Positions 19,312-19,394 of a DNA stretch of 64,000 nt are shown here, piece by piece. The stretch is from assembly GCA_045537395.1 (NCBI GenBank), contig JAZSPI010000092.1, positions 7,169 to 71,168 on the forward strand, written 5' to 3'. The notes under the pieces are model-generated. The model ran no database searches. It was not told where the DNA came from and was given only the letters and a program-made list of their open reading frames with translations. A program made the translations under genes and the position numbers. This DNA comes from Acutalibacteraceae bacterium (GTDB lineage Bacteria > Bacillota > Clostridia > Oscillospirales > Acutalibacteraceae). Positions within the stretch are counted from its first letter, which is position 1. Every line of letters begins with the position of its first letter.

Positions 19312-19394
19312 GGGGGGCGAAGCACGGCATAAATGCCGTCTCCGGACCCGAAAAGTCCGGAGCACCGCTTTAAAAAGCGGTGGCTTCGCCCCCC
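19312..19394. other. 83-nt GC-rich element folding into a perfect four-way junction (12-bp closing stem plus three hairpins)
   Basis: GGGGGGCGAAGC (19312-23) pairs with GCTTCGCCCCCC (19383-94). Inside are ACGGCA-TAAA-TGCCGT, CTCCGGAC-CCGAAAA-GTCCGGAG and CACCGC(TT)-TAAA-(AA)GCGGTG. There are no unpaired junction nucleotides. Confidence 0.6.

Follow-up and report, generated by a model that had tools for sequence, protein, structure and literature searches.

A low-copy family of GC-rich nested palindromes between genes of gut and rumen Clostridia

Proteobacteria have well-documented structured intergenic repeats; for the gut and rumen Clostridia, which are known mostly from metagenome-assembled genomes (MAGs), descriptions are very scarce. 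The REP and REPIN sequences are repetitive extragenic palindromes mobilised by RAYT tyrosine transposases, according to the parts of the accounts used here (PMC3733652; RAREFAN preprint), and a REP carries an unpaired GTAG or CGTC tag at one end, as given in the portion of PMC3733652 on which we draw. Bacterial MITEs and other structured intergenic repeats include the Correia, BOX, RUP and ERIC sequences and the Bacillus cereus bcr elements, and repeats of this type are sometimes co-transcribed with their neighbours (PMC3184786, PMC2267715).

The GC-rich nested palindromes reported here form a low-copy family, not described before, in Acutalibacteraceae and related Oscillospirales, Clostridia of gut and rumen; no account of it turned up in the literature, whether searched by concept or by signature sequence motif. 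The closest known elements in lifestyle are REP/REPIN. Insofar as the consulted parts of the sources describe them, both are GC-rich intergenic palindromes that lie mostly downstream of genes, between tandem or convergent ORFs, and both occur in either orientation, lack target-site duplications and are inherited vertically over long periods (PMC3733652; RAREFAN preprint). The larger REPIN unit is, in the same partial accounts, an imperfect long palindrome, as is the larger unit proposed below. Unlike REP/REPIN, the Clostridia family has no GTAG/CGTC tag (absent next to the stem in all 19 left and right flanks) and has few copies per genome as sampled, against tens to hundreds. It also has three internal hairpins in a four-way junction, against a simple hairpin or doublet, and its host is a Firmicute. 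No RAYT or Y1 transposase was identified among the scanned ORFs of the window and loci. With the MITEs the family shares short non-coding intergenic sequence, terminal inverted repeats (the closing stem is a perfect 11-12 bp repeat) and stable predicted folds. It differs from them in lacking a target-site duplication and apparently also a related insertion sequence, in its much lower copy number, as sampled, with orthologous copies conserved across species, and in a hypervariable middle arm set inside otherwise invariant arms.

The window (the whole 64,000-nt stretch of DNA that was analysed) holds one copy of the family, between two convergent genes. The features are:

18294..19229, + strand: convergent upstream gene, 311 aa, no Pfam match
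19246..19279, + strand: terminator-like hairpin of the 311-aa gene, T tail weak
19312..19394, - strand (the common orientation of the family): core element, four-way junction, from the folds and covariance model R1
19312..19323: closing-stem arm GGGGGGCGAAGC, pairs with 19383-19394
19324..19339: family hairpin h3, ACGGCA-TAAA-TGCCGT
19340..19362: variable middle arm, CTCCGGAC-CCGAAAA-GTCCGGAG
19363..19382: family hairpin h1 in an extended form, CACCGCTT-TAAA-AAGCGGTG
19383..19394: closing-stem arm GCTTCGCCCCCC, pairs with 19312-19323
19395..19413, - strand: degenerate outer flank separating the core from the terminator T-run, - strand sequence AGCCGGTGCTGACAGTACA
19423..19458, - strand: intrinsic terminator of the 173-aa gene, 15-bp stem followed by T8
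19466..19987, - strand: convergent downstream gene, 173 aa, no Pfam match; the orthologous loci were gathered through it

The sequence-only reading had described a perfect 83-nt four-way junction with a 12-bp closing stem, three contiguous hairpins and two TAAA loops, GC-rich in AT-rich surroundings, and both the sequence and the folds bear this out. The closing stem surrounds abutting hairpins of 6, 8 and 8 bp with no mismatches and no unpaired junction bases, and the GC content is 0.63 compared with about 0.39 across the window. The minimum-energy structure is the claimed junction whether the + strand is folded as RNA (-60.8 kcal/mol, z = -9.1, equalled by 0 of 200 shuffles), the - strand is folded as RNA (-62.6 kcal/mol, z = -9.7) or DNA parameters are used (-39.6 kcal/mol, z = -10.4). 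It is by a wide margin the most stable 90-nt segment of the 64-kb window (-62 kcal/mol, against a mean of -15 with sd 5.4). A scan of the window and 28 Clostridia loci for perfect inverted repeats of at least 9 bp enclosing at least three hairpins with at most six junction bases returned only this element and its relatives, plus one sequence of the same design (L140:773-863). The structure is thus far beyond chance.

The L140 sequence is a four-way junction of wholly different sequence, with closing stem GGGGCGCCGAT and hairpins of 13, 6 and 7 bp. Its fold has a stability of -67 kcal/mol, or -73.2 kcal/mol (z -8.6) with 8-9 nt of flank, and it sits between divergent genes in a more distant relative, not after a terminator.

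The tRNA-like size and structure of the element and its two bracketing hairpins would suit a free-standing small RNA gene that has a promoter and a terminator to itself. We regard such a gene, already disfavoured, as very improbable. The bracketing hairpins exist as the sequence-only reading had them; what is not supported is its suggestion that they enclose a separate unit, since they terminate the two convergent genes. No promoter-like site adjoins the window element or lies inside it, and its closing stem is followed by no T-run of its own (TGTACTG on the + strand, GGTTTACC on the - strand). Scored for a GC-rich stem leading directly into a T-run, only the two flanking hairpins were called as intrinsic terminators. 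ARAGORN found no tRNA or tmRNA genes in the window, in agreement with the earlier exclusion of a tRNA. Comparison with Rfam 15 gave no family at gathering or relaxed thresholds (the best sub-threshold match, rpfG, scored 19 bits where 75.9 are required), and further Rfam comparison of the element returned miRNA-like noise only. The flanks of the element are unconserved and, as shown below, its orientation relative to them flips between orthologous loci, which also counts against a stand-alone structured RNA. Riboswitch, ribozyme and tRNA-like readings were rejected on the same ARAGORN and Rfam results and because the junction has no unpaired bases from which a pocket or catalytic core could be formed. 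A reading of h1 as domain V of a group II intron was rejected as well, the intron context being absent and the architecture wrong.

Relatives were retrieved by a pattern scan of one genome per GTDB species, with the closing stem fixed and the interior free (GGGGGCGAAGC N40-70 GCTTCGCCCCC). The scan matched 66 loci, many of them either Pseudomonas fluorescens-group repeats with long hairpins or REP-like hairpins of other Proteobacteria whose interiors are unrelated. Fifteen of the 66 come from Acutalibacteraceae or Clostridia MAGs of gut and rumen and have the architecture seen in the window: the closing stem, h1 (CGCCG-TATA-CGGCG), a variable GC-rich middle hairpin and h3 (ACGGCA-TAAA-TGCCGT). 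Three more distinct copies (L072, L076, L077) were reached via the neighbouring protein, so that the closing stem was not the query. The main family totals 19 related copies in Acutalibacteraceae and other Clostridia MAGs. Two variant forms, L027 (Oscillospiraceae) and L056, have the same closing stem and three-hairpin design with other arm sequences.

The Pseudomonas REPIN-like repeats among the matches (L002, L004, L005, L010, L014 and about 25 other loci) have an outer 15 nt, GGGGGCGAAGCCGCC, identical to that of the Clostridia family. The long-hairpin repeats of the P. fluorescens group are flanked by tgccccgcgctg / cagcgcggggca, and their interiors are unrelated to the Clostridia family.

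Covariance model R1, built from 16 copies, scores the window copy at 73.4 bits on the - strand and 55.3 on the + strand. The family therefore has a definable orientation, and the window copy lies on the - strand. As sampled, there is one copy in the 64-kb window and there are one or two exact-stem copies per MAG. Searches with R1 over the window and 195 kb of related loci added none, and we conclude that the family is low-copy. One MAG carries two copies, L013 and L037, with identical middle arms. A BLAST search of the element against plasmids and phages returned nothing relevant. Among viral sequences the closing-stem pattern matched only two, both unrelated, and a viral 15-mer scan gave 59 matches, all dismissed as chance by the covariance model. 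Family-specific patterns matched nothing in two JGI metagenome scans, of a collection that seems to lack these organisms.

The family is spread over at least four unrelated intergenic loci, whose neighbouring genes (among them hydrolases, an FeFe hydrogenase and a serpin) are unrelated to one another:

Locus A: between two alpha/beta-hydrolase genes; copies in 8 species, with L032 probably a ninth (its left neighbour differs)
Locus B: between a DUF5412 gene and a convergent FeFe hydrogenase gene; copies in 4 species
Locus C: the locus of the window itself; element in 5 species, absent in 5
Locus D: between a nitroreductase gene and a serpin gene

At locus A, a strongly conserved sequence (ATCGACACCTGTCTATTAATAATCAACAC ... 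TTTATTTGTTGATTATTTACTGTGTATTAGCACTTTGTTCATAATAT; L009:5965-6100 and its equivalents in L003, L011, L013, L015, L022, L055 and L065) lies upstream of a 337-aa hydrolase gene, which is followed by a gene for an ECF-type sigma factor. This sequence is probably a promoter or operator.

Within the family, the parts of the stems nearest the junction hardly change. The inner 10-11 bp of the closing stem are identical in all 19 copies. At loci A and B this conservation is partly due to retrieval, which used the closing-stem sequence; L072, L076 and L077, retrieved without it, match at 10 or more of 11 positions. The base of the h1 stem is CGCCG/CGGCG in 18 of the 19 copies, and in the window it reads CACCG/CGGTG, changed on both sides with the pair kept; a CTT/AAG extension of h1 occurs in the window copy and L076. 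The 3' arm of h3 is GCCGT in all 19 copies and its 5' arm ACGGC in 18 (ACAGC in L035). The loops, by contrast with the stems, differ in sequence and length, that of h3 occurring as TAAA, TTTA, TATA, AATT, GTA and others. The middle arm exists in 17 distinct versions among the 19 copies, of 14 to about 30 nt, all of them hairpins of 5-12 bp whose base is nearly unchanged and whose tip and length vary. All 19 copies form three hairpins on both strands. Five pairs of the conserved helices have changed on both sides, a level of covariation reached by none of 500 shuffles; the statistics are modest because these helices hardly vary.

The copies are old. Between species, the neighbouring genes agree at only 0.36-0.71 of their fourfold-degenerate sites, and four of the locus A copies (L009, L011, L015, L065) have in common a derived middle arm, including an A·C mismatch, that differs only at its tip. 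This points to vertical descent from one ancestor, with no recent replacement. That the same old copies combine constant stems with a tip that diverges speaks for purifying selection on the sequence of the stems, since neither selection on pairing alone nor recent spread explains their invariance. Three of four arms have stayed unchanged while silent sites were largely scrambled, which suggests that the element does something.

At locus C, orthologues were gathered with homologues of the 173-aa protein, independently of the element. The element has the orientation of the window in L076 and L077/78, its core is inverted relative to the flanks in L040 and L072-74, and it is absent from L069/70, L071, L079, L080 and L140. 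A terminator homologous to the one at 19423-19458 is present in L072, L076 and L040 and also in L079, where it is kept and the element is missing. The element is either intact or absent at this locus; no decayed remnants were seen. Species without it have remodelled intergenic regions, hence a clean comparison with an empty site is not available. Locus A shows a core flip too (L022 relative to L009), and during a flip the flank motif remains on the terminator side. Some flank motifs are common to non-homologous loci: TTCTGCAACCGGT to L011 (locus A) and L040 (locus C), and CCTTCCCGTTACCG to L015 (locus A) and L017 (locus B). From this sharing we infer that the original dispersed unit was a longer imperfect palindrome of about 125 nt whose flanks have since decayed.

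These observations bear on a selfish and still active MITE or REPIN that prefers terminator-proximal DNA and has no host function. Patchy presence among close relatives at locus C, both orientations, a closing stem resembling a terminal inverted repeat, flank motifs common to unrelated loci and the two copies with identical middle arms in one MAG are all as expected of such an element. We nevertheless judge it improbable, given the very low copy number as sampled and the age of the orthologous copies, which share middle arms and keep their stems intact at near-saturated synonymous divergence. In addition, no copy shows a direct repeat flanking either the core or the extended unit, and there is no GTAG/CGTC tag, no copy in the viral, plasmid and phage collections searched and no transposase nearby. 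Many identical copies at insertion-like sites had been proposed in advance as the mark of a MITE or REP, and the family bears this mark only by half, its copies being few and conserved at orthologous sites rather than numerous or insertion-like.

All 19 main-family copies are intergenic, and all but one of them lie downstream of one or more ORFs. Upstream flank sequence is available for 18 copies, of which 16 sit 10-30 nt past an intrinsic terminator with a T-run. In L041 and L037 the element starts 1 nt and 16 nt, respectively, past a stop codon, no terminator intervening, and from the sequence the transcription of these two copies is a prediction that we hold to be certain. A 3'-UTR element, as the sequence-only reading had offered for one of its possibilities, is on these grounds still a live rival. 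It would be a cis-acting RNA, made by read-through or directly, that serves in exonuclease protection, in processing or as a protein-binding module. The extreme stability of the RNA fold and the placement of 18 of the 19 loci downstream of coding regions agree with it, as do the L041 and L037 copies, and the part of the REP literature used here reports that REPs act in this way (PMC3733652). We consider it unlikely overall: most copies lie beyond a terminator, the core is inverted at orthologous loci, and four locus A species retain the sense-strand A·C mismatch. A pure barrier, moreover, would need no sequence conservation.

The pairing itself shows no preferred RNA strand. G·U pairs number 6 of 570 on one strand and 9 of 575 on the other, rare and without strand bias, and no asymmetry of G·U against A·C between the strands, used as a test for an RNA strand, was significant. 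The loop of h3 is found both as TAAA and as its reverse complement TTTA, that is, flipped. Conserved stems with free loops are the reverse of the usual pattern in RNA-protein recognition, which counts against the 3'-UTR reading and would make a protein that binds folded DNA, as hairpin or cruciform, the more plausible partner. The flips of orientation and loop, the absence of signals of its own, the sites after terminators and the free loops fit a DNA palindrome better than a strand-specific RNA. The varying length of the middle arm would alter the spacing of the duplex and leaves the junction geometry as it is, so the folded form is likely the active one.

We therefore favour, at a probability of roughly 0.55, a vertically inherited, REP/REPIN-like nested-palindrome DNA element that acts folded and independently of orientation, with a putative sequence-specific partner, and that is no stand-alone small RNA gene. 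Among the three readings first proposed for the element, a nested-palindrome DNA element is the best supported, by its dispersal over unrelated loci in both orientations. Its ancestor would have been a palindromic DNA repeat, about 125 nt long, that dispersed in the manner of a REP/REPIN or MITE and whose outer flanks decayed later. Its active state would be the four-way junction, folded from either strand, in which the junction-proximal stems may be read by the putative partner, more plausibly a protein that binds folded DNA. Under read-through transcription it should also form a very stable 3' barrier, whichever way it is oriented. Neither a partner protein nor a transposase was recognised among 20 further ORFs of the window and 6 near the element.

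A related possibility is a chromosomal protein-binding or recombination site, used as duplex or cruciform by a junction-, hairpin- or topoisomerase-type protein in supercoiling or recombination between convergent units. The conserved junction-near stems with free loops, the equal folding of both strands, the A/T-rich hairpin loops and the position between transcription units would suit such a site, and the core inversions are consistent with exchange between the arms of the closing stem. It is nonetheless quite improbable in our view: the ORFs scanned gave no candidate protein, inversion by a recombinase would normally need more than 45-60 bp of interior, and no known type of site matches, the features of parS, dif and attC being absent on inspection. 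Sites of the parS, dif and Ter types had been considered because the window holds oriC, and were rejected since the other loci are unrelated to it and the sequences do not match.

Integron attC sites resemble the element, in a comparison by inspection only, in a function that depends on the folded strand and in a conserved base below a distal structure of variable form and length. By the same inspection, the element differs in lacking R/L boxes (GTTRRRY) at its ends and extrahelical bases or bulges, and in occurring as a single copy per locus with no cassette array and no integrase nearby. Invertible promoters (invertons) are alike in that orientation differs between species, and different in that the element has no promoter-like site inside, an interior of only 59 bp and no recombinase in sight. 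The motif d(GCGAAGC), which according to Hirao et al. is reportedly an extraordinarily stable DNA mini-hairpin, is present in the 5' closing arm of every family copy, where it differs from the mini-hairpin in being part of one arm of a 12-bp stem and not a hairpin of its own. Many of the unrelated REP-like matches of the pattern scan use GGGGCGAAGCCCC as the hairpin itself, and the motif might account for the reappearance of the arm sequence in different phyla.

More tentatively, the element may belong to a class of four-way junctions selected by the host in Oscillospirales, with a core read by a dedicated putative protein and an architecture that outlasts complete turnover of its sequence. 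The same design, three hairpins on a closing stem of 11-14 bp, with other arms in L027 and L056 and with a wholly different sequence in L140, is the evidence for such turnover. If this were true, the element would serve where transcription units end, as a functional signal in folded DNA or in RNA, and would be no decaying mobile repeat.

The favoured DNA element is unusual in being low-copy, in its conservation at orthologous sites at near-saturated synonymous divergence, and in its combination of invariant junction-proximal stems with a free middle arm. This pattern suggests that a specific partner binds the element and that its folded form is the active one; in that case it would offer a small probe, simple to synthesise, for a new protein that binds hairpins or junctions, or for a new mechanism of 3'-end control, in a bacterial group that is plentiful yet little studied. 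The family also shows that palindromes can flip and re-pair with their identity kept. Should it be only a fossil repeat, it would still be of use as a marker family and warn against annotating structures of this kind as small RNA genes.

The window spans the chromosomal origin region (2682-12900 and 21870-24715). It includes gyrA- and gyrB-sized ORFs, dnaN (10047-11153, - strand) and dnaA (11384-12691, - strand), with the minimum of the cumulative GC skew near 10-12 kb, and rnpA, yidD, yidC and jag/khpB at 22064-24715 (+ strand). About 9 kb of unrelated genes, including the locus of the element, lie between dnaA and the rnpA gene with its expected rpmH slot. The rpmH gene itself, expected just upstream of rnpA, was called only in orthologous loci. 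On the rnpA side of the origin region, the 173-aa gene forms a conserved overlapping pair with a 492-aa gene (19466-21465); the pair adjoins rpmH in orthologous loci, and Pfam domains are absent from both proteins. Clostridia metagenomes contain over 250 homologues of the 173-aa protein. The 311-aa protein, also without a Pfam match, has a Pro/Thr/Ala-rich repeat at 18479-18575. Adjacent - strand genes of 315 and 374 aa at 30985-33068 are tandem paralogues, about 73% identical over 500 nt.

We identified a second intergenic repeat family in the window, at 28966-29195, 37290-37521 and 42671-42773. The repeat is about 230 bp long; the first two copies are 83-86% identical, and the third is partial and inverted. 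It ends in a near-perfect hairpin with a 31-bp stem and a nested inner hairpin, which at -53 kcal/mol is the second most stable fold of the window.
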